From an uncultured Chloroflexia bacterium (GTDB lineage: Bacteria; Chloroflexota; Limnocylindria; Limnocylindrales; CSP1-4): 64,000 nucleotides of DNA. The DNA is taken from assembly GCA_963746845.1 (NCBI GenBank), contig CAVVCZ010000007.1:60488-124487 (forward strand), written 5' to 3'. Each line of letters begins with the position of its first letter. The first letter of the stretch is position 1. Shown here one piece after another: positions 10,764 to 49,627 of this stretch. A program made the translations under genes and the position numbers. Below the pieces are notes generated by a model. It did not search any database. It saw only the letters and a list, made by a program, of their open reading frames with translations, and was not told the origin of the DNA.

Positions 10764-12150
10764 CCGCGAGCGCCCTGCCCGTCGGCCACCCCGTCCGCGA
10801 CGGAGGCGATGAAGGGCTCGATCGGAGACGCGGCGAGGAGCCGGCGGGTGGTGGTCAGCCCCCAGTCGTCGAGGTCGGCGAGGCGATCGGAGGAGCCGCG
10901 AAGCCCGCCGTAGCGCTCCACGTGCGCCGCCAGGGCTTCACGGTGCTCGACGGCGGGCCGGGCAACGATGCAGTCCGGGTCGTTGACCCAGAACCGGCCA
11001 TGCTGGAACGCCCGCCCGGCGCCTGTCACGACCGCGGACCGGCCCCCCGGCTTCGAGAGGTCGCCGTCGTCCGGCTCCCAGTGCGGACCGGTGTCGGGGC
11101 TGATCCGCATCGCGTCGACGAGCCCGACGCTCGGCAGGATCGGTGCCCCGCAGCCGAGCAGGTACGCGTCACCGATCGCGCCGCGGATCAGCTCCATTCC
11201 GCTCCGGTACGCCTGGATCTCGGTGAGGGACCGATCCTGCCGCCGCCCGGGCATCGCGCCCGCGTACAGGAAGTCGATCTTGAAGTAGTCGAACCCGAGA
11301 CCGCACAGCGTCTCGAACACGCCGGCGAGCCACGCCCGCGCATCCGCGTGGGTGGTGTCGAGAACCAGCAATCGCTGGTCCCAGTTGTGGCCGGCGTCGA
11401 CGGGCGCATCGGTCGCGAGGTCGCGGACCAGCCAGTCGGGATGGAGCCGGGCCGTCTCGGATCGCTCGCCGACGAGGAAGGGCGCCACCCAGATCCCCGC
11501 CCGCCGACCGGCCCCATGGATGCGCCGGACCAGGCCCTCGAGGGACACGAACCGCCCGGACAGCGCCAGCCAGTCGCCGATCTCCGCCTGGTAGCCGTCG
11601 TCCAGCTGGACGACGTCGATCGGCAGGTCCAGCCGGTCCATCGAGGCCAGGTTCTCGTCCATGTCGGCCTCGGTCACGTCCGTGAAGTAGTGGTACCAGG
11701 AGCACCAGACCGTCGGCGCGCGCCGGATCCCCTTCACTCCGGCCCGGACCGCGAACCAGCCGGCCCAGGCGGCCAGGGCGCGATCGATCCCGCCTTCGGC
11801 CGGATGCTGATCGTGGGTCACGTCGCCGTCGGCCCAGACCTGGATCACGTCCCCGTTCTGCTCCAATCGGATCGATGGCACGATCCGGTCCGCGCGCGCG
11901 GCATGGAAGACGTGGATCTGCTCGGAGGGCGTCGGCTGGACCGCGAGCAGGCCCTCGCCCTGGAACACGCCGGGCGGCACGGCGTCCCCCGGTCGGTAGC
12001 CCATGACCCGGCTCACGGCGTGCCTCGGTCGGGGTGGTTGATCCGTGACGGCCCAGGTCGCCGACGGGCTCCACGACTGCCAGCCATGCTCGAACACGCG
12101 CGACGACGCCGGATCCACGTGCAGCTCGGCGATCCGTTCGAAGGCACCCA
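10760..12150 (-). CDS. alpha-galactosidase (clan GH-D, GH36/GH27-like)
   Basis: Translation contains WCSWYHYF, LDDGYQ and DYFKIDFLYAG motifs typical of melibiase-type alpha-galactosidases. ATG at 12148-12150 inside a longer artefactual ORF. Start/stop overlap with galK. Confidence 0.65.
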
Positions 12151-12161
12151 TCCCGGCCACG

Positions 12162-13193
12162 CTATCCGAACGCCAGGAGCAGCGCACCGACCAGGACGAG
12201 CACGGCCGCGCCGATCCGGCGCGCGGCGTCCGCGTTCCCCGTCGCCTCGCGGAGGCGCAACGCACCCCAGCCCGACGCGAGGACGATGGCCGACTCCCGG
12301 AGGGGGACGACCGCCGTCAACGGGGCCACGCCGTAGGCGATCAGGATCAGCAGGTAGGCCGCGAGCGTGATCAGGCCACCGACGGCCGCCCGCGGGACCG
12401 AGAACGCGGGGTCGGGTGGGTCGGGGTCGAGGGCCGGCGTTGCCACGCCGGCCGCCACGCGCGACGCCGCCCATCGGCGATAGATCCACACGTAGCTCCA
12501 CAGGAACGCGACGCAGCTGGCCCAGATCAGCGCGGCGTAGGTCCACGCCTCCGTGCCCCTGACCGCCACCGAGTCCACCGCCGAGTAGCACGCGATCGTG
12601 ACGCCGGTGAGGAGCGCGAAGCCGGCAGCGCCGGAGCCCGCGCGCCCGTCGGCGTGCAGGTACTGCCACGGCCGCTGGAGCGCGAGCATCCCGACGAGCA
12701 GGCACGCGACGCCGAGGAACCCAACGGTGCCGAGACGCTCGCCGAGAATGACGACGCCGATCGCGACGGCCAGCAATGGCGCCGTGCCGCGGGCGATCGG
12801 GTACACGATGGACAGGTCGCCGCGTCGGTAGGCGGACGCGAGGAACGCGAAGTACATCGCCTCGAGCAGGCCCGAGACGACCGACAGCCCGAGCGTCTCC
12901 GCGGGGATCGCGGGCCGGCCGATGACCAGCCAGGCGACGAGCGCCGTCGGACACAGGAGCACGGCGGCGGCCGTCATGCCGACCGCGGCCGCCCGGAGCG
13001 GATCGCCCGCGGTCTTGAGCAGAACGTTCCACGTCACGTGGAGTACGGCCGCGCCCGCGACCAGGACGAAGACGACGGGTCCACGGCCGGATGCTAGCCC
13101 GGCCGACGATCGTGGGACGCGTCCCCGGTCGCAGCTCGTCGCCGGCGCCGGACTCGAAACAGCGGGTGCCGGACGATCCGGCGCCCGCTTCAC
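12162..13193 (-). CDS. DMT/EamA-like membrane transporter
   Basis: The C-terminal ~330 aa of the 710-aa ORF is a 10-TM protein with EamA-like repeats (VSGLLEAMYFAFLASAYRRGDLSIVYPI...). No in-frame ATG; a GTG at 13191-13193 lies 5 nt after the upstream gene's stop. Start uncertain. Confidence 0.5.
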   Translation of the reverse strand: MKRAPDRPAPAVSSPAPATSCDRGRVPRSSAGLASGRGPVVFVLVAGAAVLHVTWNVLLKTAGDPLRAAAVGMTAAAVLLCPTALVAWLVIGRPAIPAETLGLSVVSGLLEAMYFAFLASAYRRGDLSIVYPIARGTAPLLAVAIGVVILGERLGTVGFLGVACLLVGMLALQRPWQYLHADGRAGSGAAGFALLTGVTIACYSAVDSVAVRGTEAWTYAALIWASCVAFLWSYVWIYRRWAASRVAAGVATPALDPDPPDPAFSVPRAAVGGLITLAAYLLILIAYGVAPLTAVVPLRESAIVLASGWGALRLREATGNADAARRIGAAVLVLVGALLLAFG

Positions 13194-13198
13194 GTTCG

Positions 13199-14890
13199 TC
13201 AGCGGGCGATGTCGCGCCGGCTGACCCCCCAGGCGCCGATCGCGATGCCACCGATGGCGATCACCACACAGAGCACCACGCCGACCGGATCCCACTGGCC
13301 GATCATCGGCTGCCCGACATGGGCGGTCAGCGCGAGCTGGTGGACCCAGTCCGGCAGGCCGAGCGGCGGAGCCAGCAGGTCGAGCAGGAACGTCGCGACG
13401 ACGAACAGCGCCGCGATCTCGGCCGCGAGTGAGGTCCGCCACAGCCCGCCGATCGCGACACCGATCCCGACGATGGCGGCGGCATAGAGACCGAGCGATG
13501 CCGAGCCGAGGAGCGCGTCTCCCGCCGTGGAACCGCCGGCTGCGGCGCCGAGGCTGATCCCCAGCGCGAACAGCACGGTCATCAGCGCGACTCCGATGAT
13601 CGCCGCGACACCGCCGGCGACGACCCAGCGCGAGCGAGTCAACGGCGTCGTCAGCACCTCCTCGAGCCGGCCTTCGGTCTCGTCGGACGCCCACTTCGAC
13701 ACGAACGTCGTGGCCGCGAAGCCGGCCGCGATGAAGAACAGCTCGGCGTACAGCTGGAGCCAGCCGCCCGCGGTCGAGAAGTCGTACCCAGGGAAGAGCT
13801 TGCCGAACACGTTCCCCATGTCGGGCGTCTTCGCGATCAGGTCGGAGAACGAGCCCACGAGCGAGCCGAGGAGCGCTCCCCAGAAGGCCATGCCGATGCC
13901 CCAGGACAGCGACCGAGGAAGCTGATCGCCGAACGCCCGCGTGATCGGGCCGCGGACCCCGAGCACGTCCTGCGGGAGCGACGGGAAGGAGAGTCCGGCC
14001 GTCACGCCGAGGTCGCGCCGGTCGAAGACCACGACCCCGAGGGCGAGGAGGACGACGCCGACGATGCCGACGAGCGCGAGGCCGGGCCAGTCGTAGAAAC
14101 CGGCGAGCGGCACGTGGTCGACCGTCCAGTGGAACGGGCTCAAGGCGATCAGCGGTCCCCCGACATCCAGGCCGCTCATCACCCAGAGCGCGATCATCAC
14201 CACACCGGCAACGGCCGCCGAGCCGGCGCGGCCGAGAACCGGAGCCAGCACGAATGCGACGCCGCCGAAGAACATCGCGATGAACCCGACCCACAGCCCG
14301 AATCCGATCGCCGAGCCGAGCGGGATCTGGTCACCCAGCGATGCGTCGCCGAAGGCGTACGAGCTGATCGTGAGCATGATCGCGAGGATGGCCACCGCCA
14401 GCCAGAGCATCGTCAGGTGAGCGGCGAGCTTCTCGACCGCGATCCGGCGCTTGCCGAAGGGCGACGTGGCAACGAGGTCGAGGCTGCCACGGGCCGCTTC
14501 GCCCGCGAGCGTCCCCGACAGCGCGAGGATCGACCACAAGGCCGTCCCGAGGGCAAACGTCGCCCCGTACTTCCAGGTCACATACCCGCCGAGCGTCCCG
14601 AGCTTGGCGCCCATCAGGGTCGTGTTGCCGAAGAGGTTGACCATCTGGGCGGGCATGCTTCCCACGAGGGCGTTCAGGTCGAGTCGGGTCTGCGAGGTCG
14701 GAAACACGGTTCCGATGGCCGCACCCAGGACGAGGGACAGGCCGGCGAGCATGCCGGCCGCGATGATGAAGGCAAGCCGGGAATCGCGGATCGTCTTGCC
14801 GTAGATGCTCCCGAACCCGTAGATCCGGCGCCGGAGCGGGATTGACGGATAGACCGCCGCCCCCTGCGGCGCCTGTGCGCCGGCGCTCAT
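13199..14890 (-). CDS. ABC-2 type transporter permease (large, about 12 TM)
   Basis: 563 aa, highly hydrophobic, with an ABC-2 permease-like repeat organisation. Stop overlaps the start of the downstream ATPase gene (ATGA). Confidence 0.7.
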   Translation of the reverse strand: MSAGAQAPQGAAVYPSIPLRRRIYGFGSIYGKTIRDSRLAFIIAAGMLAGLSLVLGAAIGTVFPTSQTRLDLNALVGSMPAQMVNLFGNTTLMGAKLGTLGGYVTWKYGATFALGTALWSILALSGTLAGEAARGSLDLVATSPFGKRRIAVEKLAAHLTMLWLAVAILAIMLTISSYAFGDASLGDQIPLGSAIGFGLWVGFIAMFFGGVAFVLAPVLGRAGSAAVAGVVMIALWVMSGLDVGGPLIALSPFHWTVDHVPLAGFYDWPGLALVGIVGVVLLALGVVVFDRRDLGVTAGLSFPSLPQDVLGVRGPITRAFGDQLPRSLSWGIGMAFWGALLGSLVGSFSDLIAKTPDMGNVFGKLFPGYDFSTAGGWLQLYAELFFIAAGFAATTFVSKWASDETEGRLEEVLTTPLTRSRWVVAGGVAAIIGVALMTVLFALGISLGAAAGGSTAGDALLGSASLGLYAAAIVGIGVAIGGLWRTSLAAEIAALFVVATFLLDLLAPPLGLPDWVHQLALTAHVGQPMIGQWDPVGVVLCVVIAIGGIAIGAWGVSRRDIAR

Positions 14891-20212: not shown

Positions 20213-21376
20213 TCAGGCGAACAGGCCGAGCTTGCCGGGGAGCTCGGCGAGGACCTCGGACAGCTTCGCCATCCGGGCCTGGAGCGCGCCCAGGTCGGCC
20301 TTCGTGATCGCCGAGAACGGCTGGTAGCCCGACCCGTCCGCGTAGCGGCCGATGATCTCGTCGACCGCGCCATACGCCGCGTCGACGCCCGAGAGGTACG
20401 TCGGATCGACGGTCTGGATCGTCGGCCGCATGATGTCGACGATCTTCTTCGAGCCGGCCACGTTCCCGGCGATCGACCACAGGTCGGCCCCGGAGTAGCG
20501 GTCCTCCTCCCCGGTCAGCTTCGACTGGGCGACCTCCTCGATCAGCTCGCCGGCGCCGCGGGCCATGACCCGGGGCTCGATGTCCAGGGTCGCGAGCCGC
20601 TTGCCCAGCTCGGTCGCGTCGGCGCCGAGGCCCGCGGCGATCGGTGCGAGCCCGTTCGTCGTGCCGTCCTTCCACAGCCCCTTCTCCAGGCGGTGCCAGC
20701 CGAGGAACGCCGGATCGTCGACGCCGCCCGCGAAGTCCTCCTCGCGGGCGTCCATCCGCGTGTCGAGGTCCGAGAACAGCTCCGCGACCGGCTCGATCCG
20801 CTCCCAGGCCGGGCGCGACGGCGCGTAGGCGGCCTTCGCCGCATCGAGCTTGCCGTCCTCCACGGCGGTGACGAACGGCGCGAGGTTCTGCGTCAGCTCG
20901 GCGGCCTGCTCGCGGACGTACGTCTCGTATGCGGTCCGATAGCCCGCCAGGGTCGCAGCGTCGATGACCGCGCTGGACGGCCGGGGGGCCGAGCCGCCGG
21001 TCACGGCCAGCTGGCCGCGCGGTGCCTGGAGCGAGTAGCAGATCAGGGCGTAGGTGCCACCGTCGAGGCGGGTCGCGAAGTTGATCACGAACCCGGGGAC
21101 GATGTTCTCGACCTCGTCGACGACACGGGTGCCGGACAGGACCTCGAATTCGGCCGCATCCGGGCCGCCGTTCGTCACCTCGAACACGACCCGGCCCGCC
21201 GTGGCGTTGAGGCTGCCGGGCGTACAGCCGCTCGCCGTCAGCGTCACGGGGATCCGCGCCTCGGCATCACCGGCCGCCGTGCCGGATCCCGCCGGTGACG
21301 CGCTGCACGCGCCGACGACGACGGCGACCAGGGCCGAGGCGGCGAGGCGCGTGGAGCGGCGAGAACGGGTCGTCAT
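20213..21376 (-). CDS. efeO: iron uptake system component EfeO (cupredoxin-like N-domain plus imelysin/M75-like domain), lipoprotein
   Basis: 387 aa. N-terminal signal with lipobox-like VVGAC. Overall match to the EfeO pattern, and immediately upstream of efeB in the same orientation. Confidence 0.75.
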   Translation of the reverse strand: MTTRSRRSTRLAASALVAVVVGACSASPAGSGTAAGDAEARIPVTLTASGCTPGSLNATAGRVVFEVTNGGPDAAEFEVLSGTRVVDEVENIVPGFVINFATRLDGGTYALICYSLQAPRGQLAVTGGSAPRPSSAVIDAATLAGYRTAYETYVREQAAELTQNLAPFVTAVEDGKLDAAKAAYAPSRPAWERIEPVAELFSDLDTRMDAREEDFAGGVDDPAFLGWHRLEKGLWKDGTTNGLAPIAAGLGADATELGKRLATLDIEPRVMARGAGELIEEVAQSKLTGEEDRYSGADLWSIAGNVAGSKKIVDIMRPTIQTVDPTYLSGVDAAYGAVDEIIGRYADGSGYQPFSAITKADLGALQARMAKLSEVLAELPGKLGLFA

Positions 21377-21548
21377 GTCGGCGAGCGTGCCTCCGTGGTT
21401 GGTCGCGATCGGGCGGCACTCCGCGCCGCGCCGCGTCGCTCCGGCGGGCGGAATGGTAAGCCAACCTGCCTCAGCAGGGCAAGGGCACTTGCGTTACGAT
21501 ACCAAGTATGCTTGCTGACCAGCCACCAGCCGGCCCGGGACTCCGGGC

Positions 21549-22385
21549 GTGATCCCGGCCTTCCTGATCACCCTCCGCGAGGGGCTCGAGGCGGCCCTGA
21601 TCGTCGGGATCGTCGCCGCGTATGTCGTCCGCGTCGGCCGGCGCGACGCGCTGCCGAAGGTCTGGTTCGGCGTGGCAGCGGCCGTCGGCCTGTCGATCGG
21701 GATCGGGCTCGTCGTCGTCGCCACGATCGAACGCCTGCCGCTCGTCGTCCAGGAGTCGATCGAGGGCGCGACCGCACTGCTCGCCGTCGCGATCCTGACC
21801 TGGATGCTCTTCTGGATGCGCCGCCAGGGCCGAGCGATGAAGGGCGAGCTCGAGCACGGCGTCGATCTGGCCCTCGCGAAGGGCTCGGTCGCGGCGCTCG
21901 TCGGCCTCGCGTTCGTGGCCGTCTTCCGCGAGGGCATCGAGACGGTCCTGTTCATGGCCGTGGTCTTCTCGGCGACGCAGGTGGGTCCCGGCCCAGCGTT
22001 CGGGGCCATCGCCGGTCTCGCGGTCGCGGTGCTGATCGGCTGGGCGATCTTCGTCGCCGGCGTCCGGATCGACCTGCGCCGCTTCTTCTCGATCACCGGG
22101 GTGCTCCTGATCTTCGTGGCGGCGGGCCTGTGCGCCTTCGCCGTCGGCGAATTCGGCGAGGCGGGGCTGATCTCGAACACCGGCGCCGTCTTCGACCTGA
22201 GCGGGGTCCTGCCGGTGACCAGCGCGCTCGGGAGCGTGCTCGCGGGGCTCTTCGGCTATCGAGCGTCCCCCACCCCGCTCGAGCTGATCGCGTACTTCGC
22301 CTACCTGATCCCGGTCCTGACGCTGTTCCTCCTCGGGGATCGCCGGTCGGCACCGCGGGCGAAGCCGGTCGACGCCGGGGCCTGA
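21549..22385 (+). CDS. efeU: FTR1-family high-affinity iron permease (EfeU)
   Basis: 278 aa, 7 TM, two REGLE/REGIE motifs (LREGLEAALIVG and FREGIETVLFMA) diagnostic of FTR1/EfeU. Divergent from efeO. Confidence 0.8.
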   Translation: MIPAFLITLREGLEAALIVGIVAAYVVRVGRRDALPKVWFGVAAAVGLSIGIGLVVVATIERLPLVVQESIEGATALLAVAILTWMLFWMRRQGRAMKGELEHGVDLALAKGSVAALVGLAFVAVFREGIETVLFMAVVFSATQVGPGPAFGAIAGLAVAVLIGWAIFVAGVRIDLRRFFSITGVLLIFVAAGLCAFAVGEFGEAGLISNTGAVFDLSGVLPVTSALGSVLAGLFGYRASPTPLELIAYFAYLIPVLTLFLLGDRRSAPRAKPVDAGA

Positions 22386-22395
22386 TCCGGCTCCG

Positions 22396-23331
22396 TCAAC
22401 CGCGCGTCGAGAGGTCGGCGAGGGTCGGCGGGTCGGCGCCCGCCCGGCCGACCGTCCAGGACGCGACGCGCACCGCGAACCGGACGGCGTCGAGGACGGC
22501 GTCCGCGTCATGGAGGTCCTCCCGTCCCCGTCCCGAGTGCGTCCAGGCCGCCAGGAACCCGGCCGCGAACGCGTCGCCCGCGCCGACGGTGTCGACGAGC
22601 GGGACCCGCGGGACCGGGATCTCGACCGTGCCCGCGGGGCGGACGATCCGGATCGGCGCCGGGCCGTCCGTCAGCAGGACGATCGCCGGCCCCGCTGCGA
22701 CGAGCCCGCGCGCGGCGGCGATCGCGTCGGCGCCGGGGGCGAGCCAGCGGAGGTCGTCGACGCTGACCTTGACGACGTCGGCACGGCGCACGACCGCCTT
22801 CAGCCGCGCCCGGTAGACCGTCTCGTCGAGGATCGCCGCCGGGCGGATGTTCGGGTCGAGCATCACCAGGACGGCCGAGTCGGCCGCCGCGACCAGATCG
22901 GCGATCGTCGTCGCCGTCGGCTCCAGCACGAGGCCGAGCGTGCCCACGTGGAACACCGCCGCGGTCGGCGGCAGCCCGTCCGGAAGGTCGTCAGAGCGGA
23001 GCCCCGCCGCCGCGGAGCCCGGCGGCTCGAACCGGTAGGTCGCCGCGCCATGGGCGTCGAGCGAGGCGATCGCCTGGAGGGTCGGCTCGTCCGTGTCCCG
23101 GGTCAGCGACAGGTCGACGCCGTCGTCTTCGAGGAGTCCGCGGAGAACACGCCCGTCGGGGTCGGTCGAGAGGCGGCCGAGGAACGCCACCCGGCAGCCG
23201 AGCCGGCCCAGGGCACGCGCGGTCGTGAACGGTCCGCCGCCGGGCACGGCATCGACCCGCCCGTCGGTCCGCGCGATCCGGTCGATCAGGCTCTCCCCGG
23301 CGACGACGATCAGGGGTCGGTCATCGGACAT
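22396..23331 (-). CDS. PfkB-family carbohydrate kinase (fructokinase/ribokinase-like)
   Basis: 311-aa protein starting MSDDRPLIVVAGESLIDRI, with C-terminal PfkB signature DTVGAGDAFAAGFLA. ATG at 23329-23331 inside a longer artefactual ORF. Confidence 0.8.
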   Translation of the reverse strand: MSDDRPLIVVAGESLIDRIARTDGRVDAVPGGGPFTTARALGRLGCRVAFLGRLSTDPDGRVLRGLLEDDGVDLSLTRDTDEPTLQAIASLDAHGAATYRFEPPGSAAAGLRSDDLPDGLPPTAAVFHVGTLGLVLEPTATTIADLVAAADSAVLVMLDPNIRPAAILDETVYRARLKAVVRRADVVKVSVDDLRWLAPGADAIAAARGLVAAGPAIVLLTDGPAPIRIVRPAGTVEIPVPRVPLVDTVGAGDAFAAGFLAAWTHSGRGREDLHDADAVLDAVRFAVRVASWTVGRAGADPPTLADLSTRG

Positions 23332-23385
23332 CGCCGAAGCGTAGGGCGGCCGCCGAGCCGGCGTCCGTGCCGGTAGGCTGCCGCG

Positions 23386-24090
23386 ATGGACCGGCTGACG
23401 AGCGTTGCGGAGCTGCTGGACGGGCCACTCGACGACGAGCGCGCGCTGGTCGGCAACCTGCGCGACCTCGCCCGGCTCAACCGGCTGACCGGTGGAGCCC
23501 GCCTGTCTCAGCGGGCCATCGCGTCGTTGGCGCCAGACCGAGGAGCGCCGATCGCGACGCTGCTGGACGTCGGCACGGGCGCCGCCGACATCCCGATGAC
23601 GCTGCTGGCCGCCGCCCGGCGCGCGGGCACGACCCTCACGATCACCGCGACCGACAGCCGGCCCGAGGTGATCGCCGCGGCGCGCACCGCCCGCCCGGCG
23701 ATCGACCGGGTCGACGGGCTGGAGCTCGCGATCGCCGACGGACGCGGCCTGCCCTGGCCGGATGCCGCGTTCGACGTCGCGCACGCGTCGATGGTGCTGC
23801 ACCACCTCGAGCCGGACGACGCGGTCGCCTTCCTCCGGGAGCTGCGGCGGGTGGCCCGGATCGGGATCGTCGCGAACGACCTGGCCCGCGGGCGGCTCAA
23901 CTGGGTCGGGGCATGGGTGCTGATCCACGCCACTGCGACGAGCCGGTTCACCCGCCACGATGGCCCCCTGTCGGTACGGCGCGCGTACACGCGCCGGGAG
24001 CTGGACGAGCTCATCGCGGCGGCGGGTCTGACGCCCATGCGCACGGTCGTGGGCTTCGCCGGGCATCGGGTCGCGATCGCCGCTCGGTGA
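23386..24090 (+). CDS. class I SAM-dependent methyltransferase
   Basis: Motif I LDVGTGAADIP and a post-I acidic residue pattern. 234 aa. Confidence 0.75.
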   Translation: MDRLTSVAELLDGPLDDERALVGNLRDLARLNRLTGGARLSQRAIASLAPDRGAPIATLLDVGTGAADIPMTLLAAARRAGTTLTITATDSRPEVIAAARTARPAIDRVDGLELAIADGRGLPWPDAAFDVAHASMVLHHLEPDDAVAFLRELRRVARIGIVANDLARGRLNWVGAWVLIHATATSRFTRHDGPLSVRRAYTRRELDELIAAAGLTPMRTVVGFAGHRVAIAAR

Positions 24091-24123
24091 GCCGGCCGCG
24101 TTCCAGCGACTACGCTCCGCGCG

Positions 24124-25314
24124 ATGGAGCGACGCGAGGTCCTGATCGTCGGCGGGGGTCCGGCCGGCGCCGCAACGGCGATCGGGCTGGCGCGGCGCGG
24201 CCGCGACGTGCTCCTCGTCGAGCGCGCTCCCGTGTGGCGCTGGCGGGCGTGCGGCGTGTTCACGTCGCCTGCGACGGTTCGTGCGCTGCGGCGTATCGGC
24301 GTCGCGGACGAGGACCTGGCGCGGGTCGCGCGGCGGGTGCCAGCGATGCGCGTCGAGACGCCGGCGGGGACGATGTTCCGCCTGACCTACGGAGACGACG
24401 GCTCACTCGGCTCGGCGGCGGTCGGGCTCGATCGGTCGACGCTGGATCCGTGGCTCCTCGGCCTTGCCCGGGCGGCGGGTGCCGAGGTCCGCGAGGGCGT
24501 GTCTGTCCGTTCCGTCCGGGAGGGCGGGGCGGTGGCGGCGGACGGAGCGGAGATCGAGGCCCGGGTCGTCGTCGGGGCGGACGGGCTGCGATCCGTCGTC
24601 GCGCGGGACGCGGGCGTCGTTCGAAGGCCGCCACTCGGCGATCGTCCGGCGCTCACCTTCCACGTCGAGGATCCCGGGCCGGACGTCGCACGGGACGCAC
24701 GAATGGTCGTCTTCGACGGCGGCTACGTCGGTCTGGCACCCGTTCCTGGTGGCCGGGTGAACGTCGGGATCGTCCTCGCGACCCGGAGCTGGCGCGATCG
24801 ACTGCGGGCGGAGGGCGCCGCCGCCGTCGCGGCCGCGGTCCTGGCGGCGATCCCGCCGGCCGACGACGACCCGGTCCCGTGGGCGGCGCCGCGGATCCGC
24901 GATGGGTTCGAGGGCGCGTCGCCGGTCGGGACACGCGTCGTGACCCGGGCCGGGGCTCGGTGGCTCCTCGTCGGGGACGCGGCGGGCTTCCTCGATCCGT
25001 TCACGGGCGAGGGCCTCCACCGGGCCCTGCGATCGGCGGAGCTCGCGACGGCCGCCACGGACCGATTCCTGACCGGTGACCCGGCCGCGCTCGGCGCGTA
25101 CGACCGGGCGCTCGCCCGTCGCACGCGATCGAAGGATGCTGTCAGCCTGATCGTCCAGGCGTTCCTCGAGGTCCCCGCGCTCTTCGACTACGCGGCCCGC
25201 CGGCTCGCGGCGCGGTCGACGGTCCGTGAGACGATGGGCCTCGTGATGGGCGACCTCGTCCCGGCGTCGACGGCCTTCGACCCGCGCTTCCTCGTCGGGC
25301 TCCTCCGCCCGTGA
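24124..25314 (+). CDS. FAD-dependent oxidoreductase, geranylgeranyl-reductase family
   Basis: N-terminal dinucleotide fold VLIVGGGPAGAATAIGLARRGRDVLLVER, GDAAGF motif (LLVGDAAGFLDPFTGEG) typical of the geranylgeranyl-reductase/MenJ-like family. 396 aa. Confidence 0.75.
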   Translation: MERREVLIVGGGPAGAATAIGLARRGRDVLLVERAPVWRWRACGVFTSPATVRALRRIGVADEDLARVARRVPAMRVETPAGTMFRLTYGDDGSLGSAAVGLDRSTLDPWLLGLARAAGAEVREGVSVRSVREGGAVAADGAEIEARVVVGADGLRSVVARDAGVVRRPPLGDRPALTFHVEDPGPDVARDARMVVFDGGYVGLAPVPGGRVNVGIVLATRSWRDRLRAEGAAAVAAAVLAAIPPADDDPVPWAAPRIRDGFEGASPVGTRVVTRAGARWLLVGDAAGFLDPFTGEGLHRALRSAELATAATDRFLTGDPAALGAYDRALARRTRSKDAVSLIVQAFLEVPALFDYAARRLAARSTVRETMGLVMGDLVPASTAFDPRFLVGLLRP

Positions 25315-25799
25315 CCGAGCCCGGTCATGTGCCGCCGGACGAGGCGAAGCTCCCGCGGCGGACACGCCTGGGCGGCTACGCGCTCTGCACGGACGAGCAG
25401 GACCGGATCCTGCTCGCCCGCCTGTCCGCGATCGAGGTCGACGTGGGCGCGTGGACCCTGCCCGGCGGCGGCGTCGACTTCGGCGAGCACCCGGACCACG
25501 CGGTGATCCGCGAGCTCGAGGAGGAGACCGGCCTGATCGGGGAGATCGACGGCGTCGCGGGCGTGTTCTCGCACGTCTACCGCCAGTCGCGCGCCGTCGC
25601 GGGCGCCGATCTCCACTTCCTCGGGATCCTGTACGTCGTCCGGGTCGTGGGCGGGCAGCTCCGCGACGAGGTCGACGGGACGACCGACGCCGCCCGCTGG
25701 TTCCGCCGGGACGAGCTGGCCGCGGTTCGCCTCGTCGAGATCGCGCGGTTCGGGGTGGATCTGGCGTTCGAGCGCCTGGCGGACCGGGCCGGGGCATGA
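25311..25799 (+). CDS. NUDIX hydrolase
   Basis: Nudix box GGGVDFGEHPDHAVIRELEEETGL. Start overlaps the stop of the upstream gene. Confidence 0.8.
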   Translation: MTEPGHVPPDEAKLPRRTRLGGYALCTDEQDRILLARLSAIEVDVGAWTLPGGGVDFGEHPDHAVIRELEEETGLIGEIDGVAGVFSHVYRQSRAVAGADLHFLGILYVVRVVGGQLRDEVDGTTDAARWFRRDELAAVRLVEIARFGVDLAFERLADRAGA

Positions 25800-26305
25800 G
25801 GAGCACGATCGGGATCGATGTCGCGGCTCCCGCCGAGCTGGTCTTCCGGCTGGCGCACGACGTGGAGCGCTGGCCGCGGCTCCTCCCCCACTACGTCGCC
25901 GCCACCCGCCTCGCGCCCGAGGACGTCGCAGGTCGGCTCGACGTGCGGTTCGTGGCCCGGCGGGCGTTCGTCCCGGTCCTCGGGCTCGGCATCCCGGTCG
26001 CCTGGCGTTCGCTGACCTGGTCCGAGCCGGAGGCCTGCCGGCTGCGGTTCGTCCATCGCGGCGGGGCGACGAACGGGATGGACGTGACCTGGCGGATCGA
26101 GACCCGCGAGGGCGGCGCCAGCCGGGTCGAGATCGACCACGACTTCCGGCCGCGGGTGCCGGGCTGGGCGTGGGCGATCGACCGGTTCTTCACGCGGCCG
26201 ATCGCCGGCCGAACGCTCGCGACCTTCCGGGCGCTGGCCGAGGCGATGGCCGAAACCACGACCGGGACGTCCGAACGGCCCGCCACGACGAACCCATCCT
26301 CGTGA
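25796..26305 (+). CDS. SRPBCC-superfamily protein (polyketide cyclase/dehydrase-like fold)
   Basis: 169 aa MRSTIGIDVAAPAELVFRLAHDVERWPRLLPHYV..., matching the Bet v1-like/cyclase-dehydrase family pattern. ATG overlaps the NUDIX stop (ATGA). Confidence 0.6.
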   Translation: MRSTIGIDVAAPAELVFRLAHDVERWPRLLPHYVAATRLAPEDVAGRLDVRFVARRAFVPVLGLGIPVAWRSLTWSEPEACRLRFVHRGGATNGMDVTWRIETREGGASRVEIDHDFRPRVPGWAWAIDRFFTRPIAGRTLATFRALAEAMAETTTGTSERPATTNPSS

Positions 26306-27567
26306 GCGATCGTCGACGCGTCTGGATCACCGGGATCGGGCTGATCACCGCGATCGGGACCGGCGTCGACGCCTTCCGGGCAGGCCTGCGCGCCGGCTGC
26401 TCGCCGATCAAGCGGATCGACCGGTTCGATCCGTCGCCGTTCCGGAGCCAGGTCGCCGCCCAGATCGACGACTTCGACCCGGCCGCCTGGATGCCCCCGA
26501 AGACCGCCCGCCAGCTCGACCGGTTCAGCCAGTTCGGGCTGGTGGCCGGTCAGCTCGCGCTCGAGGACGCCGGGCTGCGGCCGGGCGAAGGCGGTGCGGC
26601 CGCCCGCGAGCGGATCGGCATCTTCCTCGGCAGCGCGCTCGGCGGGATCGCCTACGCCGAGGGCCAGCACGAGCGCTATCTCGAGCGCGGGATCAAGGCC
26701 GTCGCACCGAACCTCGCGCTCGCGGTCTTCGGTGGTGCGGCGCCCGCCAATCTCGGCATCGCGCTCGACGTCCGCGGGCCGATCCTGTCGACCGCGAACT
26801 CGTGCGCGTCGGGGGCCGTCGCGCTCGGCGAGGCGCTGAACGCGATCCGGGACGGCGAGGTCGACGCCGCGGTCGCGGGCGGGGCGGAAGTGCCGCTGAG
26901 CGCGCTCGCGTTCGGGGCGTTCGACATCATCCGGGCCCTGTCCGACGGCCGGAACGACGACCCGGCCCGGGCCTGCCGCCCGTTCGACGCCGGCCGCGAC
27001 GGCTTCGTCATGGGCGAGGGCGTCGCGCTGCTCGTGCTCGAGGCGGAGGAGATCGCTCGGGCGCGGGGCGCGGAGCCGTACGCCGAGCTCCTCGGCTACG
27101 GCGCGACGTCGGACGCGTTCCACATGGTCCAGCCGCGGGCGGACGGATCGGAGGCCGGCCGCGCGGCGACGATCGCGCTGCGGGACGCAGGCGTCGCGCC
27201 GGACGAGATCGACTGGGTGAGCGCCCACGCGTCGTCGACGCCGCTCGGCGACATCGCGGAGGCGCGGGCGATCCGGCTCGCCCTCGGGGAGCGGGCCGCG
27301 ACCGTTCCCGTCAGTGGCACGAAAGCGCTCTACGGCCACCCGCTCGGTGCGTCCGGGGCAATCGAGGCCGCGATCTGCGCCCTCGCGATCCGGGACGGCT
27401 GGGTCCCTGCGTCGGCGAACCTGACGGCGCCCGAGCCCGAGATCGACGCCCTGCTGCCGGGTCTGCTCCACGCCGGTCGCGACGGCACGTATCGGCGGAT
27501 CCTGTCGACCTCGTTCGGGTTCGGCGGCCTCAACGGGGCTGTGGTGATCGGCGCAACCGGCGGATAA
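26302..27567 (+). CDS. beta-ketoacyl-ACP synthase (KAS II/FabF-like)
   Basis: GTG start overlapping the upstream stop. Ketosynthase motifs, with the active-site Cys in STANSCASGAVALGEA and the two His regions (SAHASSTPLGD, GHPLGASGA). About 421 aa. Confidence 0.85.
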   Translation: MSDRRRVWITGIGLITAIGTGVDAFRAGLRAGCSPIKRIDRFDPSPFRSQVAAQIDDFDPAAWMPPKTARQLDRFSQFGLVAGQLALEDAGLRPGEGGAAARERIGIFLGSALGGIAYAEGQHERYLERGIKAVAPNLALAVFGGAAPANLGIALDVRGPILSTANSCASGAVALGEALNAIRDGEVDAAVAGGAEVPLSALAFGAFDIIRALSDGRNDDPARACRPFDAGRDGFVMGEGVALLVLEAEEIARARGAEPYAELLGYGATSDAFHMVQPRADGSEAGRAATIALRDAGVAPDEIDWVSAHASSTPLGDIAEARAIRLALGERAATVPVSGTKALYGHPLGASGAIEAAICALAIRDGWVPASANLTAPEPEIDALLPGLLHAGRDGTYRRILSTSFGFGGLNGAVVIGATGG

Positions 27568-27615
27568 GCGGTTCGGCGTAGAGTCGGGTCGAACGACAGC
27601 ACCGGAGAACCCGCC

Positions 27616-28344
27616 ATGGCCGTTGCCTCACCCAGCTTCGCCGGCTTCCGACCGGAGGCCATCCAGTTCCTCGCGGACCTCGCCGAGAACAACGACCGGG
27701 CGTGGTTCCAGCCGCGCAAGGCGGAGTTCGAGCGGCTCCTCAAGACGCCGATGGAGGAGCTCTGCGTCGCCCTCGAGGCGGAGTTCCGCGCCCGCGATCT
27801 GCCGCTCCACGCAGACCCGGCCCGGTCTCCGTTCCGGATCTACCGCGACACGCGCTTCTCCAAGGACAAGTCGCCGTACAAGACTCACGTCTCCGCGAGC
27901 TTCGGCTGGGCCGGCGACGGCGTCGGGGCGGCCGAAGGGCGGTCGCACACGGACAACGTCCATGCGAGCGGCGGGTACTTCCACCTCCAGCCCGGCGAGA
28001 TCTACGTCGGCGGCGGGGTCTGGCACCCGGATTCGGCCTGGCTGGCCGGCTTCCGCCGGCGTGTGGCGGGCGATCTCGATGGCTTCAGGGCGATCGCCGA
28101 GGCGCCGGCGTTCACCAAGGCATTCGGGCGGGTCAGCGACGACGGCGAGTCGCTGAAGCGCGTCCCGCCCGGCTATCCCGCCGATCACCCGGCGGCGGAC
28201 ATCCTCCGCCTCAAGAACGTGACCTTCGGTCGACGGCTGTCGGACGACGAGGCGCTCTCCCCGAAGCTCCCGACCGTGATCGTCGACACGTTCGCCCTCG
28301 GGACGCCGCTCATGCGCTACCTCGCGACGATCGGCGCCGGCTGA
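27616..28344 (+). CDS. DUF2461/TIGR02453-family protein
   Basis: 242 aa beginning MAVASPSFAGFRPEAIQFLADLAENNDRAWFQPRKAEFE, matching the conserved DUF2461 N-terminus. Confidence 0.65.
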   Translation: MAVASPSFAGFRPEAIQFLADLAENNDRAWFQPRKAEFERLLKTPMEELCVALEAEFRARDLPLHADPARSPFRIYRDTRFSKDKSPYKTHVSASFGWAGDGVGAAEGRSHTDNVHASGGYFHLQPGEIYVGGGVWHPDSAWLAGFRRRVAGDLDGFRAIAEAPAFTKAFGRVSDDGESLKRVPPGYPADHPAADILRLKNVTFGRRLSDDEALSPKLPTVIVDTFALGTPLMRYLATIGAG

Positions 28345-28352
28345 GCCGTCGG

Positions 28353-29828
28353 TCAAGCGAGGACGGCCTGGCCGATCTCGTCCTCCTCGACCTGGTGACC
28401 GCCGCGCATGGCCGACACGCCGGCCCCGATCAGGCTGAACACGACGCCCACCGCGAACGCGAGCTGGAGCGCCTCAATGAACGGACCGAGGTCGATCCCG
28501 GCCGAGCCGGTCTGCGCGCCGGAGAACACCGCGAGGAGCACCTCGGGATTCACAACGCTCGTCACGAGGCCCAGCGCCAGGGCGATGCTCACCATGAACC
28601 CGACCTGCGTGAGCATCATCCTTGCGCCCGCACCCATCCCGCGTTTGTCGGCCGGGATCGCGCCCATGACGGCACTGGTGTTCGGTGAGGCAAAGAGGCC
28701 CGAGCCGGCGCCCACGATGAGCTGCCACAGGACGAGCTGCCAGATCGGCGTGTCGACGGCGATCGTGAGCGCCAGCCCGGCGAGCCCGACCGCGGTGACC
28801 AGCATGCCCGCCGTGGCGAGCATCCGCGATCCGGAGCGGTCGGCGAGCGCCCCGCTGATCGGCGACAGCACGAGCAGCCCGATCGCCAGCGGGCTCAGGA
28901 GGATCCCGGCCGTGACCGGATCGAACCCGCGCACGCCCTGGAGGTAGAAGACGAGCAGGAACAGGACGCCGTTCCGGGCGATCCCGTTGAGCAGGCTCGT
29001 CAGGTTGCCCATCGAGAAGAGCCGATTTCGGAAGAGCCCGAGGTCGAGGAGCGGATCCCGGCGGTTCCGCTCGACGAGCAGGAACACCGGGAGCGCGACG
29101 AGGAACGTCACGAAGCCGCCGACGATCCACCACGTCGTCCAGCCGTAGATCCCGCCGAACCCGAGCGCCGCCATCAGCCCGGTGAGCCCCGCGATGCACA
29201 GGACGGTGCCGGGGACGTCGAACCGGCGGCGGGTCTGCGGCCGGACCTGCTCGACCAGGAGGCCCGCCGCGGCGAGCGACCCGACGATCCCGATCGGCAC
29301 GTTGAACCAGAAGATCGTCCGCCAGCCGTAGGTCGTCAGCCAGCCGCCGAGGATCGGCCCGAGAATCTGCCCCGCCCCGATGACCATCGCGTTGATCCCG
29401 AGGGCCCGGCCCAGCTCGCGGCGCGGGAACGCGTCGGTGACCAGCGCGGCGGAGTTCGCCATCAGGAGCGCCCCGCCGACGCCCTGGAGCACCCGGCCGC
29501 CGATCAGCAACAGATCGGTCGGCGCGAGCGCACACCCGATCGAGGCGATCGTGAACACGACGAAGCCCGTCGTGTACGAGCGGGCCCGGCCGATCTGGTC
29601 GGCGATGGTGCCGGCGTTCAGGACGAGGACGGTCGCGACGAGCGTGTAGCCGATGACGATCCAGAGCAGCGCGAACAGGGTCGTCTGGAGGTCCCGGAGG
29701 ATGTCCGGCAGGGCGATGATCAACGTCCCGGAGGTCAGCGAGGCGAGCAGCGCGCCCAGGCTCGTGACCGCGAGAACGACCCAGCGGTAGTTGTCGCGGG
29801 TCTCGCCCGCCGCATGCCTAACCTTCAC
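28353..29828 (-). CDS. MFS transporter, DHA2-type (14 TM) drug:H+ antiporter family
   Basis: 491 aa, 14 predicted TM helices, MFS motif A-like GRV.QG.GGAL region. Confidence 0.85.
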   Translation of the reverse strand: MKVRHAAGETRDNYRWVVLAVTSLGALLASLTSGTLIIALPDILRDLQTTLFALLWIVIGYTLVATVLVLNAGTIADQIGRARSYTTGFVVFTIASIGCALAPTDLLLIGGRVLQGVGGALLMANSAALVTDAFPRRELGRALGINAMVIGAGQILGPILGGWLTTYGWRTIFWFNVPIGIVGSLAAAGLLVEQVRPQTRRRFDVPGTVLCIAGLTGLMAALGFGGIYGWTTWWIVGGFVTFLVALPVFLLVERNRRDPLLDLGLFRNRLFSMGNLTSLLNGIARNGVLFLLVFYLQGVRGFDPVTAGILLSPLAIGLLVLSPISGALADRSGSRMLATAGMLVTAVGLAGLALTIAVDTPIWQLVLWQLIVGAGSGLFASPNTSAVMGAIPADKRGMGAGARMMLTQVGFMVSIALALGLVTSVVNPEVLLAVFSGAQTGSAGIDLGPFIEALQLAFAVGVVFSLIGAGVSAMRGGHQVEEDEIGQAVLA

Positions 29829-34082: not shown

Positions 34083-34117
34083 GACGGCGACGAGTCTAGC
34101 GCTACCATCCCTCGACG

Positions 34118-34888
34118 ATGCGCGACCAGCTGTCGCTGCCGCTGGAGCCCGACGTCCAGCCGCTGCCGAACCTTCCCGACGGGCTGCGGCCGATGCTCCC
34201 CCGGATGATCGCCGAGCCCTTCGACTCCGCGGTCCACCTGTTCGAGCCGGCCTGGGGCGGGACCCGGGCGCTGGCGTTCATCGGGCCGGCCGAGGACCCG
34301 GGCGCCGGCGAGGTCCGGATCCTCGACGGCGAGGGTCGCGACCTGGGCCCCGCCCTGCCGGAGCTCGCGGGGATGGCGGTGCGCGTCGACGCGCGGTCCG
34401 CGGTGCTCGACGGGGAGCTCGTTGCGGTCGACGAGGCGGGCCGCGCGGACCCGGCCGAGCTGGCACGCCGGATCGGCGGAGGCGCCGGCCGGCCGGTGGC
34501 GTTCCTGGCATTCGACCTCCTCCACATCGATGGGCGGTCGCTGCTCTCGACGCCGCTCCACAAGCGACGCAACCTCCTGCGCCGGATCCTGCACCCGGGC
34601 GACGAGGTCCTCGCGGTGCCCGCGATCGCCACCGAGGGCCGGGCCCTCCACGCCGCGGCCGCGGCGCAGGGGATCGCCGGGGTGATGGCGCGCCAACGGA
34701 CGAGCCCGTACCTCCCGGGCACGATCTCGCGGCTGTGGCGGTTCATCGCAACGGAGCCCAACCCGACCCCGGCGGCCGCGGCGAACCCGGATCTGGGCCT
34801 GGGGCTGGAGCTGACCGAGCCGAGCGCGACGGCCGCGGCCCCGGTGGTCGCCTTGATCCGGAGACTCCCCCTGCTCTTCGACGAGTAG
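34118..34888 (+). CDS. ATP-dependent DNA ligase adenylation-domain homologue lacking the motif I lysine
   Basis: 256 aa. Ligase motifs III (AVLDGELVAV), IV (FDLLHIDG) and a V-like motif (GIAGVMARQ) are present. Motif I reads FEPAWGGTR instead of EPKxDGxR (K to A, D to G). No OB domain. Confidence 0.55.
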   Translation: MRDQLSLPLEPDVQPLPNLPDGLRPMLPRMIAEPFDSAVHLFEPAWGGTRALAFIGPAEDPGAGEVRILDGEGRDLGPALPELAGMAVRVDARSAVLDGELVAVDEAGRADPAELARRIGGGAGRPVAFLAFDLLHIDGRSLLSTPLHKRRNLLRRILHPGDEVLAVPAIATEGRALHAAAAAQGIAGVMARQRTSPYLPGTISRLWRFIATEPNPTPAAAANPDLGLGLELTEPSATAAAPVVALIRRLPLLFDE

Positions 34889-44360: not shown

Positions 44361-45068
44361 CTACAGCGCCAGGAACACCCCCATGACGATGAGCCAGAGC
44401 GACCAGGCGATGTAGGCGATCGGCACGATCGTCCCGGCCAGCGGCCAGCCATCGCGCTCGTTCGGGCCGACGAACTCGAGCGTGCCGACGAGGAGCGCGA
44501 GCCCGATCGGGACGGCCAGCCAGCCGAGCCATGCCGGCAGCGGTGTCGTCGTGACGATCGAGGCGGCCACGGCCAGGGTCCACAGGCCGGTGAACAGGTA
44601 CCCGAGGTGCTCGCCGATCCCCACGCCGAGCAGGCGATGGAGCGTCGCGAAGATCGTCTCGACCGTCCGGCGCTCCGCCGCGGCGTCAGCGGGCGATCGA
44701 TCGGGCGCGTCCGCCGCAACGTACCGTCGCGCGAGCTCGGGGACCGCGAACGGCCAGCGCACCAGTCCGAGCGCCTGGACCAGGGCCGCGGCGGCGCCGA
44801 GCGTGATCGCGAGGGCCGTCCAGACCGGCGCGGCGCCGAGCGCCACCGCGAGCAGGACCGCGAGCGGCAGCATCGCGAGCGCGCTCACGAGCAGCGCCTC
44901 CCAGCGGAGGATCAGCCCCGACCCGCCGGCATGGAACCGGCGAAGGATCTCGTCCGGTGCGCGACGGAGGATGTCCGGGTAGTCGAACGCCCGGCCCAGC
45001 GAGAAGAACGCCAGGTTGAACGCGATCGGCACGACGATCAGCAGGACGGCGGTCACGGTCTCGACCAT
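44361..45068 (-). CDS. DUF4386-family membrane protein
   Basis: 235 aa starting MVETVTAVLLIVVPIAFNLAFFSLGRAFDYPDILRRAPDEILRRFHAGG, matching the DUF4386 N-terminus. 6 TM. Confidence 0.5.
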   Translation of the reverse strand: MVETVTAVLLIVVPIAFNLAFFSLGRAFDYPDILRRAPDEILRRFHAGGSGLILRWEALLVSALAMLPLAVLLAVALGAAPVWTALAITLGAAAALVQALGLVRWPFAVPELARRYVAADAPDRSPADAAAERRTVETIFATLHRLLGVGIGEHLGYLFTGLWTLAVAASIVTTTPLPAWLGWLAVPIGLALLVGTLEFVGPNERDGWPLAGTIVPIAYIAWSLWLIVMGVFLAL

Positions 45069-46652: not shown

Positions 46653-46761
46653 CTTCGATCCTCCTGTCACGACGCCGGCCCCCGGCATCCCGCGACGCCC
46701 GGGGCGGCGTCATCATTCCGGGAACCTACCCACTACATCGGGACGTGAGACGCTGCCGCAG

Positions 46762-47729: not shown

Positions 47730-47757
47730 TCCGACGCTCGTGTTCCGGCCGACGGGC

Positions 47758-49470: not shown

Positions 49471-49627
49471 GCGAACGAGAGGCTGAGGACTGACCCATGA
49501 CCGACGATCCGAACGCCCAACGCTCGTCCCATGCATCTCCCGTCATCGCGGCGGCGATGACGGTTGTGCGGAAGCGGCCGATTCATACAACGAAGCCCAT
49601 CCGCCGCGTCCGAGCCTCGACCTGGAC

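Follow-up and report, generated by a model that had tools for sequence, protein, structure and literature searches.

Phenolic lipids derived from alkylresorcinols, and polyketide quinones, lend strength to bacterial envelopes; in mycobacteria and Streptomyces they also serve as alternative electron carriers in hypoxia or dormancy. To our knowledge, such lipids and quinones have so far been attributed to operons encoding a type III polyketide synthase (PKS). The srsABC operon of Streptomyces griseus, hidABC of Cyanobium (found also in Planctomycetota) and pkqABC of Mycobacterium smegmatis and Streptomyces yield alkylresorcinols that are then methylated and hydroxylated to hierridins, alkylquinones, polyketide quinones and methyl ethers (PMC6836626, PMC9927152, PMC10896814). 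The DNA considered here is a 64-kb stretch of about 72% GC from an uncultured Chloroflexia bacterium (the window). It carries a Limnocylindria-type copy of a widespread four-gene cassette that encodes a methyltransferase (MT), a flavin adenine dinucleotide (FAD)-dependent oxidoreductase, an SRPBCC protein and a beta-ketoacyl synthase (KAS), with a lineage-specific NUDIX gene added. From the homologies of its products, the cassette is predicted to make alkyl-aromatic lipids or quinones that are methylated and hydroxylated, without the help of a type III PKS, a reading to which we give a probability of about 0.45. The genes in question and their immediate surroundings are as follows.

23386..24090, + strand: S-adenosylmethionine (SAM)-dependent methyltransferase of the PRK06202/NF004851 type, 234 aa
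24124..25314, + strand: FAD-dependent oxidoreductase of the geranylgeranyl-reductase (GGR) superfamily, 396 aa
25311..25799, + strand: NUDIX hydrolase, 162 aa (PF00293, intact Nudix box)
25796..26305, + strand: SRPBCC protein, 169 aa (Polyketide_cyc/Polyketide_cyc2)
26302..27567, + strand: FabF-like beta-ketoacyl synthase, 421 aa (N and C ketoacyl-synt domains)
27616..28344, + strand: DUF2461/TIGR02453 protein, 242 aa (PF09365, TIGR02453)
23332..23385, no strand: intergenic region of 54 bp between the divergent PfkB kinase gene and the methyltransferase gene, the presumed operon promoter
22396-23331, - strand: PfkB-type kinase, divergent, upstream of the MT gene
28353-29828, - strand: DHA2/EmrB-type major facilitator superfamily (MFS) transporter, convergent to the DUF2461 gene

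Gene order and distribution of the cassette

Real genes were picked in the window by a frame-specific analysis of GC content at third codon positions (GC3). This confirmed the six plus-strand open reading frames (ORFs), each with a coding-like GC3 of 0.88-0.95. The junctions are compact. The stop codon of the MT gene at 24090 is separated from the ATG of the FAD gene at 24124 by 33 nt; the next three junctions are 4-nt overlaps, GTGA between FAD and NUDIX (25311-25314), ATGA between NUDIX and SRPBCC (25796-25799) and GTGA between SRPBCC and KAS (26302-26305); and 48 nt lie between the KAS stop codon at 27567 and the DUF2461 ATG at 27616. The start/stop overlaps suggest a single transcript with translational coupling. 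Because the upstream PfkB gene is divergent, the operon starts at the methyltransferase. Scans for Rfam families, tRNAs and promoters or terminators gave nothing informative, and in the 54-bp intergenic region they revealed no sigma-70-like site and no Rfam match.

The distribution of the cassette was followed through its SRPBCC protein. This family is narrow (375 clusters at 50% identity) and has sharp motifs, W-P-x-x-L-P-H-Y and G-M-x-V-x-W. The motifs were back-translated into a degenerate pattern, which was first validated with the window and with known loci and then used in a single scan covering one genome per GTDB species. The scan gave at least 120 loci, and all locus counts here and below are among the matches listed. 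Neighbouring genes were scored by tblastn with the window proteins, and adjacency was counted only in loci with room on the side concerned. Carriers belong to Chloroflexota, Gemmatimonadota, Eremiobacterota, Verrucomicrobiota, Armatimonadota, Nitrospirota, Nitrospinota, Elusimicrobiota, Bacteroidota and Paenibacillus. The SRPBCC gene is directly followed on the same strand by the KAS gene in 99 of 104 informative loci, spread over at least eight phyla, and MT and FAD genes lie upstream in most non-verrucomicrobial loci. By group, the counts are:

Chloroflexota: SRPBCC followed by KAS in 21/24; room upstream in 9 loci, same-strand upstream MT in 8 and FAD in 9
Gemmatimonadota: SRPBCC followed by KAS in 33/33; room upstream in 19 loci, same-strand upstream MT in 14 and FAD in 17
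Eremiobacterota: SRPBCC followed by KAS in 13/13; room upstream in 5 loci, same-strand upstream MT in 4 and FAD in 5
Verrucomicrobiota: SRPBCC followed by KAS in 24/25; room upstream in 15 loci, same-strand upstream MT in 0 and FAD in 0
Others (Nitrospirota, Nitrospinota, Elusimicrobiota, Bacteroidota, Bacillota and unclassified metagenome-assembled genomes, MAGs): SRPBCC followed by KAS in 6/6; room upstream in 6 loci, same-strand upstream MT in 5 and FAD in 4
Armatimonadota: four loci, SRPBCC followed by KAS in 2/3, which complete the total of 104

The conserved core is thus MT-FAD-SRPBCC-KAS, reduced to SRPBCC-KAS in Verrucomicrobiota. The bare four-gene core forms an operon in Paenibacillus glycanilyticus MERTA38 (NZ_JAMBNP010000002.1, about 865.0-868.7 kb), the only cultured carrier seen. 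All-against-all clustering of the locus ORFs detected no further family common across phyla. All extras are clade-specific: 20 Gemmatimonadota loci have a PF01613 flavin reductase, 10 loci have DUF92, Eremiobacterota have a 4Fe-4S ferredoxin and 3 loci have a B12-radical-SAM enzyme. RibD_C, LPG_synthase_TM, AP_endonuc_2, DUF92, a sigma factor and an ABC ATPase were considered as parts of the system and set aside as not conserved across phyla. In Chthoniobacterales (loci L012, L017, L034, L051, L075, L100, L103, L106 and L117-L119), where SRPBCC-KAS stands without MT or FAD, genes for a RibD_C reductase, a flippase-like LPG_synthase_TM protein and a xylose-isomerase-like TIM-barrel protein lie upstream on the same strand. 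In a Chloroflexota-like locus (L133, 4621-11223) the cassette is directly followed by genes for IDI-2, crtB, crtI, a glycosyltransferase, a cruF-like protein and an acyltransferase, a carotenoid glycoside-ester cluster. This carotenoid link does not recur in other loci and is probably a coincidence.

The full order MT-FAD-NUDIX-SRPBCC-KAS-DUF2461 is kept in four related contigs with differing flanks (L001, L003, L004 and L063). The NUDIX gene occurs only in L001-L005, L029, L048 and L063. It is absent from all other phyla and from the Limnocylindria loci L023 and L054, in which the FAD gene directly precedes SRPBCC. NUDIX is a recent, subclade-specific insertion between the FAD and SRPBCC genes as judged from these gene orders, and since it sits inside the operon with overlapping codons it is probably co-expressed. 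Its PDB matches are generic MutT/NUDIX proteins and offer no functional lead. The DUF2461 protein matches PF09365 at 205 bits (cut-off 22.8) and TIGR02453 at 187.3 bits (cut-off 105.4), and a PDB search gave no solved relative. Its gene follows KAS in no loci other than L001-L004 and L063; in L001 an RraB gene lies between the two. It is a neighbour in the window's subclade only, with no sign that it belongs to the pathway. The adjoining DHA2/EmrB-family MFS efflux gene is convergent to DUF2461 both in the window (28353-29828, - strand) and in L004 (9811-11316), and in Methylobacterium oryzae (L139, 1707-3347) a DHA2 MFS gene overlaps the start of a type III PKS-MT-FAD operon. The DHA2 transporter may export the lipid product.

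The original prediction was made from the window alone. Its domain labels (methyltransferase, GGR-like FAD enzyme, NUDIX, SRPBCC, KAS and DUF2461) are upheld by Pfam and NCBIfam, and the three 4-nt overlaps, the short first gap (33 nt) and the 48-nt gap read from the sequence as it described them. It raised the possibility of a chance juxtaposition, against which stand the order kept in related genomes with other flanks and the SRPBCC-KAS core. Its idea of a single conserved pathway of five or six genes has to be narrowed, NUDIX and DUF2461 being confined to the window's Limnocylindria-like subclade. The affinity to Actinobacteria/Thermoleophilia that it anticipated was not found. The closest relatives are Chloroflexota (Candidatus Limnocylindria); for the SRPBCC protein, metagenomes contain thousands of relatives of 70-86% identity, and those with names are Candidatus Limnocylindrales or Chloroflexota.

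Tailoring enzymes, SRPBCC protein and ketosynthase

The methyltransferase matches the Pfam families Methyltransf_11/25/12. Its best NCBIfam model is NF004851, at 137.5 bits (below the cut-off of 243), and methyltransferases linked to type III PKSs match this same model at 151-232 bits. When 72,556 annotated plasmids were searched by tblastn with the MT, 21 records matched. In all nine homologues inspected, from Novosphingobium, Paludisphaera, Paenibacillus cellulosilyticus, Microvirga, Paracoccus, Falsirhodobacter, Sphingobium (two) and Methylobacterium, a type III PKS gene lies within one or two genes and an FAD/NAD(P)-type oxidoreductase gene is adjacent; that of Microvirga is annotated as a truncated 'NAD-binding protein'. 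Such three-gene units correspond to the known hidABC, srsABC or pkqABC operons. Paludisphaera has the order MT-FAD-type III PKS with overlapping genes. The PKS therefore sits exactly where (NUDIX-)SRPBCC-KAS sits in the window.

The oxidoreductase is an FAD_binding_3 protein that scores 121.6 bits against TIGR02032, below the subfamily cut-off of 158.8, which makes it a superfamily-level relative. Against the MenJ model NF045655 it reaches 67.1 bits for a cut-off of 700. It shares Cys and GDAAG motifs with the geranylgeranyl reductase family, and its motifs GxGxxG, R-x-x-C-G, GADG and GDAAGFxDPFTGEG are common to the type III PKS-linked homologues. Both its motifs and its pattern of hits (TIGR02032, QhpG) are those of the type III PKS-linked enzymes of Paludisphaera, Paracoccus, Falsirhodobacter and Novosphingobium, with 29-31% identity where measured (Paludisphaera and Novosphingobium). 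Its top PDB hit is the flavin-dependent halogenase CmlS. A halogenase role was rejected since the position of WxWxIP, which we take to be the motif of these enzymes, reads GYVGLAP. On this evidence the MT and FAD genes form a pair of the srsBC/hidAB/pkqBC type, and the FAD enzyme is probably an aromatic-ring hydroxylase like SrsC/HidB. In neighbour-joining trees without support values, MT and FAD proteins linked to a type III PKS are basal or sister to those of the cassette, and the cassette MT of P. glycanilyticus groups with other cassette MTs, apart from the type III PKS-linked MT of P. cellulosilyticus.

The FAD enzyme probably depends on an external electron donor. This is suggested by Gemmatimonadota, in which a flavin reductase gene lies in the cassette. 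The order there is FAD, flavin reductase (PF01613), MT, SRPBCC, KAS, often with a DUF92 membrane protein gene upstream (L013, L018, L020, L025, L030, L036, L044, L067, L074, L078, L082, L096, L101, L104, L107, L111, L114, L120 and L125). A gene for a B12-binding radical SAM enzyme is present in L078 and L120, and also in L132. Gene content thus suggests additional tailoring steps in Gemmatimonadota. In Eremiobacterota (L014, L019, L042, L043, L059, L099 and L122) the gene immediately before the cassette encodes a small 2x[4Fe-4S] ferredoxin.

Two gene fusions support a functional tie between the SRPBCC protein and the tailoring enzymes, as far as can be read from gene structure. In L136 (7741-10798; P0172), on a 2.18-Mb contig, FAD and SRPBCC are naturally fused into a protein of 520 aa, preceded by a ferredoxin gene and followed, with a 4-nt overlap, by KAS. 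The 253-aa product of the gene after KAS in this locus was considered as a methyltransferase and is not one. In three MAGs of Thermomicrobiales (L137, 296-1339; P0248, P0390, P0391) the SRPBCC protein is fused to a membrane methyltransferase of the ICMT/PEMT type, on contigs too short to include the genes around it. ICMT-type enzymes are the other methyltransferase class of bacterial type III PKS operons.

Compared by sequence profile with solved structures, the SRPBCC protein comes closest to the aromatase/cyclases (ARO/CYCs) of type II PKSs. A search of the PDB with the family profile gives BexL at 3.5e-23, WhiE at 1.5e-13 and TcmN at 5e-11, and also ZhuI and StfQ; the Coq10-like protein 1t17 appears at 2.5e-4 only. 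An AlphaFold2 model (predicted local distance difference test score, pLDDT, 94) gives as its top Foldseek matches TTHA0849, a protein of unknown function, TcmN, ZhuI, BexL and WhiE, with TM-scores of about 0.65-0.76 to ZhuI, TcmN, WhiE and BexL. By fold, then, ARO/CYCs are the nearest solved relatives of known function, just behind TTHA0849. Invariant in the family are W26, P27, L30, P31, H32, Y33, R56, W70, H87, G94, M95, W99, H115 and E149; WhiE W28 and Y35 align with W26 and Y33. Profile and model together lead us to propose that the SRPBCC protein is a cyclase/aromatase and release factor.

The KAS passes the cut-off of the PRK07314 subfamily model (425.7 bits for 387) and stays below that of the fabF equivalog TIGR03150 (432.9 bits for 493.75). 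In a neighbour-joining tree without support values, 97 cassette KASs fall into a single clade, with the FabFs of E. coli, Thermus and Listeria outside it. On average, cassette KASs are 54% identical to one another and 41-46% identical to the FabFs, and the Paenibacillus KAS is 42% identical to Listeria FabF and 50% to the Chloroflexota window copy. The Cys-His-His catalytic triad (Cys163, His303, His340) and Lys335 are present in 97/97 and Phe400 in 95/97; Glu314 is kept in all members and Asp311 in all bar four, which have Glu. Twelve positions are signatures of the clade, including I108L, G107A, A162S and a run at 134-140. I108 is the chain-length residue and A162 adjoins the catalytic Cys; the signature positions presumably line the FabF acyl pocket. 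By its residues, the KAS is predicted to be a competent condensing enzyme, probably a paralogue of the housekeeping FabF with an altered substrate pocket, and we propose that it acts as a chain-extending condensing enzyme.

Several partners of such enzymes were sought by tblastn around the cassette. Two type III PKS queries matched nothing in the window (64 kb) or the 120+ cassette loci. Queries with E. coli AcpP and a Novosphingobium protein detected no acyl carrier protein (ACP) in the window or the cassette loci, although short divergent ACPs could escape such a search. FabD and FabH were likewise absent from the window and from every cassette locus, so that no acpP, fabD or fabH adjoins the KAS. 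There is one KAS per locus; no second one, which could be a chain-length factor (KS-beta), was present in any locus or in the window.

Proposed pathway and alternative explanations

The homologies, the conserved gene order, the positional replacement of the type III PKS and the intact catalytic residues are observed directly. The substrates, number of condensations, chemistry and product that we infer are as follows. The FabF-like ketosynthase (KS) would take a fatty acyl-ACP from primary metabolism and condense it with malonyl-ACP at least once, without reduction. The ARO/CYC-like SRPBCC protein would then fold, cyclise, aromatise and release the beta-keto chain, the PRK06202-type MT would methylate the ring, and the GGR-superfamily flavoenzyme, reduced by ferredoxin or a flavin reductase, would hydroxylate it to a hydroquinone or quinone. 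By analogy with the srs/hid/pkq systems, the proposed product is a membrane alkyl-aromatic polyketide of the same kind, i.e. an alkylresorcinol, an alkylpyrone or an alkyl-(hydro)quinone. The original prediction had pointed to the tailoring of an alkyl-aromatic lipid or quinone, and that direction is retained. Its view of KAS and SRPBCC as mere additions to a tailoring pair is not, for these two are probably the part that builds the scaffold. It is possible, at rather longer odds than even, that a homodimeric FabF-derived KS and an ARO/CYC-type SRPBCC protein, borrowing the primary ACP, have non-homologously replaced the type III PKS and supply abundant, mostly uncultured soil phyla (Chloroflexota, Gemmatimonadota, Eremiobacterota, Verrucomicrobiota and others), in which the pair is widespread, with membrane alkylresorcinols or alternative respiratory quinones.

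Several observations weigh against the proposed route to alkyl-aromatic lipids. The best PDB hit of the KAS is the FabF of T. thermophilus at 332 bits, with actinorhodin KS-alpha at 260 bits. A type II-like aromatic PKS would normally need a chain-length factor and a dedicated ACP, both absent at the loci. The SRPBCC position that aligns with the catalytic Arg69 of TcmN/WhiE is not conserved; R56, H32, H87, H115 and E149 are invariant in the family despite this mismatch. The SRPBCC-KAS pair of Verrucomicrobiota, with an MT or FAD gene nearby in 0/15 loci, suggests that the pair need not feed these tailoring enzymes. The cassette loci were read over 8-20 kb per genome, so a type III PKS might lie further away. 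Finally, the trees of MT, FAD and KAS are neighbour-joining trees without support values and with few outgroups.

Some of the same features would suit a modification of fatty acids, a reading that we consider unlikely. Here a FabF paralogue would elongate a particular acyl-ACP, the SRPBCC protein would be a dehydratase or lipid-binding partner, and the MT and the flavoenzyme, acting as a reductase, would methyl-branch or saturate the chain to an unusual membrane fatty acid or ketone. The KS is indeed FabF-like, with every catalytic residue of fatty-acid synthase (FAS) and the Phe400 gate; the lack of an encoded ACP or chain-length factor implies the primary FAS ACP; the flavoenzyme has GGR-family motifs and an adjoining ferredoxin or flavin reductase, as true reductases do; and SRPBCC-KAS stands alone in Verrucomicrobiota. 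However, the MT and flavoenzyme homologues are tied to type III PKSs, not to fatty-acid genes (9/9), the MT is not of the Cfa/BfaB type, polyketide ARO/CYCs are the best match of the SRPBCC protein, and neither a ketoreductase nor a hot-dog dehydratase is conserved in the cassette. Very improbable, and largely refuted, is a chance juxtaposition in which the KAS would be the housekeeping FabF and its neighbours unrelated. The high similarity to FabF and the PRK07314 score would fit, but the order is conserved in at least eight phyla and fusions exist. The KAS, moreover, falls in a separate clade, shows the 42% versus 50% identity pattern and lies below the fabF equivalog cut-off. With no acpP, fabD or fabH nearby, the doubt raised with the original prediction, that it might be a mere housekeeping FabF, is thereby largely answered.

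Tailoring of an isoprenoid quinone such as menaquinone, an option named in the original prediction, appears improbable. It would involve a UbiE/MenG-like MT, a MenJ-like side-chain reductase or ring hydroxylase and an SRPBCC protein that acts as a quinone-binding chaperone like Coq10/RatA, with the KAS as an accessory. This reading could draw on weak UbiE/MenG matches of the MT and weak MenJ and UbiH matches of the FAD enzyme, on the label RatA (COQ10-like) given by the Joint Genome Institute (JGI) to many SRPBCC homologues, on Coq10-like 1t17 as a distant structural match, and on the DUF92 membrane protein upstream in 10 Gemmatimonadota loci, a family that we take to include phytyl-phosphate kinase. 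But the MenJ score is 67 bits for a cut-off of 700, the UbiE models give 18-24 bits for cut-offs above 200, and the SRPBCC profile favours ARO/CYCs over 1t17 by 9-19 orders of magnitude. Neither prenyltransferase genes nor men/mqn genes are recurrent members of the cassette, and the invariant SRPBCC-KAS coupling would be left unexplained. Quite improbable, too, is the supply of a special acyl starter by the KS and SRPBCC protein to a remote type III PKS that would make the ring. This draws on an analogy with sphingomonad ACP-KAS-type III PKS-MT-FAD clusters, in which a KAS can serve a type III PKS, and 8-20 kb per genome would leave room for a distant PKS gene. Against it, neither the 120+ loci nor the 64-kb window holds a type III PKS; the cassette KAS, 31-38% identical to the sphingomonad KAS and without an ACP alongside, is not its orthologue; and an ARO/CYC-like SRPBCC protein has no obvious role in starter synthesis.

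If the proposed type III PKS-free route is correct, genome mining keyed to type III PKSs misses this capacity in several uncultured soil phyla that rank among the most abundant. The cassette would then encode a minimal aromatic PKS without chain-length factor or dedicated ACP, of interest for enzymology and engineering, and would clearly exemplify the non-homologous replacement of an enzyme within a conserved tailoring operon. The hypothesis is directly testable thanks to P. glycanilyticus MERTA38, a cultured carrier with the bare four-gene operon.

The rest of the window and comparison with known systems

Elsewhere in the window, an EfeUO-type iron uptake locus (20213-22385) lies just upstream of the PfkB gene. 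It consists of two divergent genes, one for an FTR1-family iron permease and one for an EfeO-like protein that combines cupredoxin and imelysin/Peptidase_M75 domains. The region 46294-50700 has a lower GC content (0.63-0.67 versus 0.72). Its genes specify PhoU, a low-molecular-weight phosphotyrosine phosphatase and a phosphate ABC transporter, the last made up of two BPD_transp_1 permeases with an ABC ATPase. ORF 47867-49210 of this region joins permease and ATPase domains, perhaps as the result of a frameshift or of a wrong joining of ORFs. Relative to the rest of the window, AT skew is exceptionally high (+0.29) at 12000-14000, around a minus-strand EamA-like/ABC-2 membrane protein region, and at 44500-45000. 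A single imperfect 43-bp tandem duplication (34359-34445; 2 copies, 78% match) lies inside the high-GC3 frame 34100-34888 (+).

Full-text literature searches, whose coverage is incomplete, gave no description of an SRPBCC plus KAS cassette with MT/FAD tailoring genes. The comparison suggested by the original prediction was with mycobacterial Rv0560c/MenJ (Rv0561c), in which a SAM methyltransferase likewise lies beside a GGR-superfamily flavoenzyme. The analogy fails on the 67 bits (for 700) of the FAD enzyme in the MenJ model and on the type III PKS genes that adjoin 9/9 of the inspected MT homologues. The nearest annotated relatives are type III PKS-linked, not menaquinone-linked, and no polyprenyl or menaquinone genes are associated with the cassette.

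With the type II PKSs that employ mono-domain or di-domain ARO/CYCs (WhiE ORFVI, TcmN, ZhuI, BexL, StfQ), the cassette shares a discrete KS of the FabF/KS-alpha superfamily adjoining an SRPBCC ARO/CYC. It differs from them in the lack of a chain-length factor, a dedicated ACP and a ketoreductase, in a KS nearer to FabF than to KS-alpha, in the non-conserved Arg69 position, and in its hosts, which are mostly uncultured soil phyla and not actinomycetes.

Sphingomonad plasmids such as Novosphingobium pentaromativorans pLA3 and Sphingobium yanoikuyae pKN1 carry a third architecture, (DUF2147-)ACP-KAS-type III PKS-MT-FAD (L126, 680-4754; L138, 2456-6775), for which no characterisation was found. 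Known from annotation, these clusters resemble the cassette in having a stand-alone KAS together with the same MT and FAD families. Unlike the cassette, they keep a type III PKS and an ACP and have no SRPBCC gene, and their KAS is only 31-38% identical to the cassette KASs.

The closest likeness in tailoring genes is to the srs/hid/pkq operons, which also couple a PRK06202-type MT to a GGR-superfamily FAD oxidoreductase in a compact operon. The MT and FAD proteins of the cassette stand mostly on branches separate from the type III PKS-linked ones, and the defining type III PKS is missing, its place being taken by a FabF-like KS and an ARO/CYC-like SRPBCC protein. The order itself is that of hid-type operons, in which, as in the cassette, MT and FAD are followed by the scaffold-forming enzyme or enzymes.

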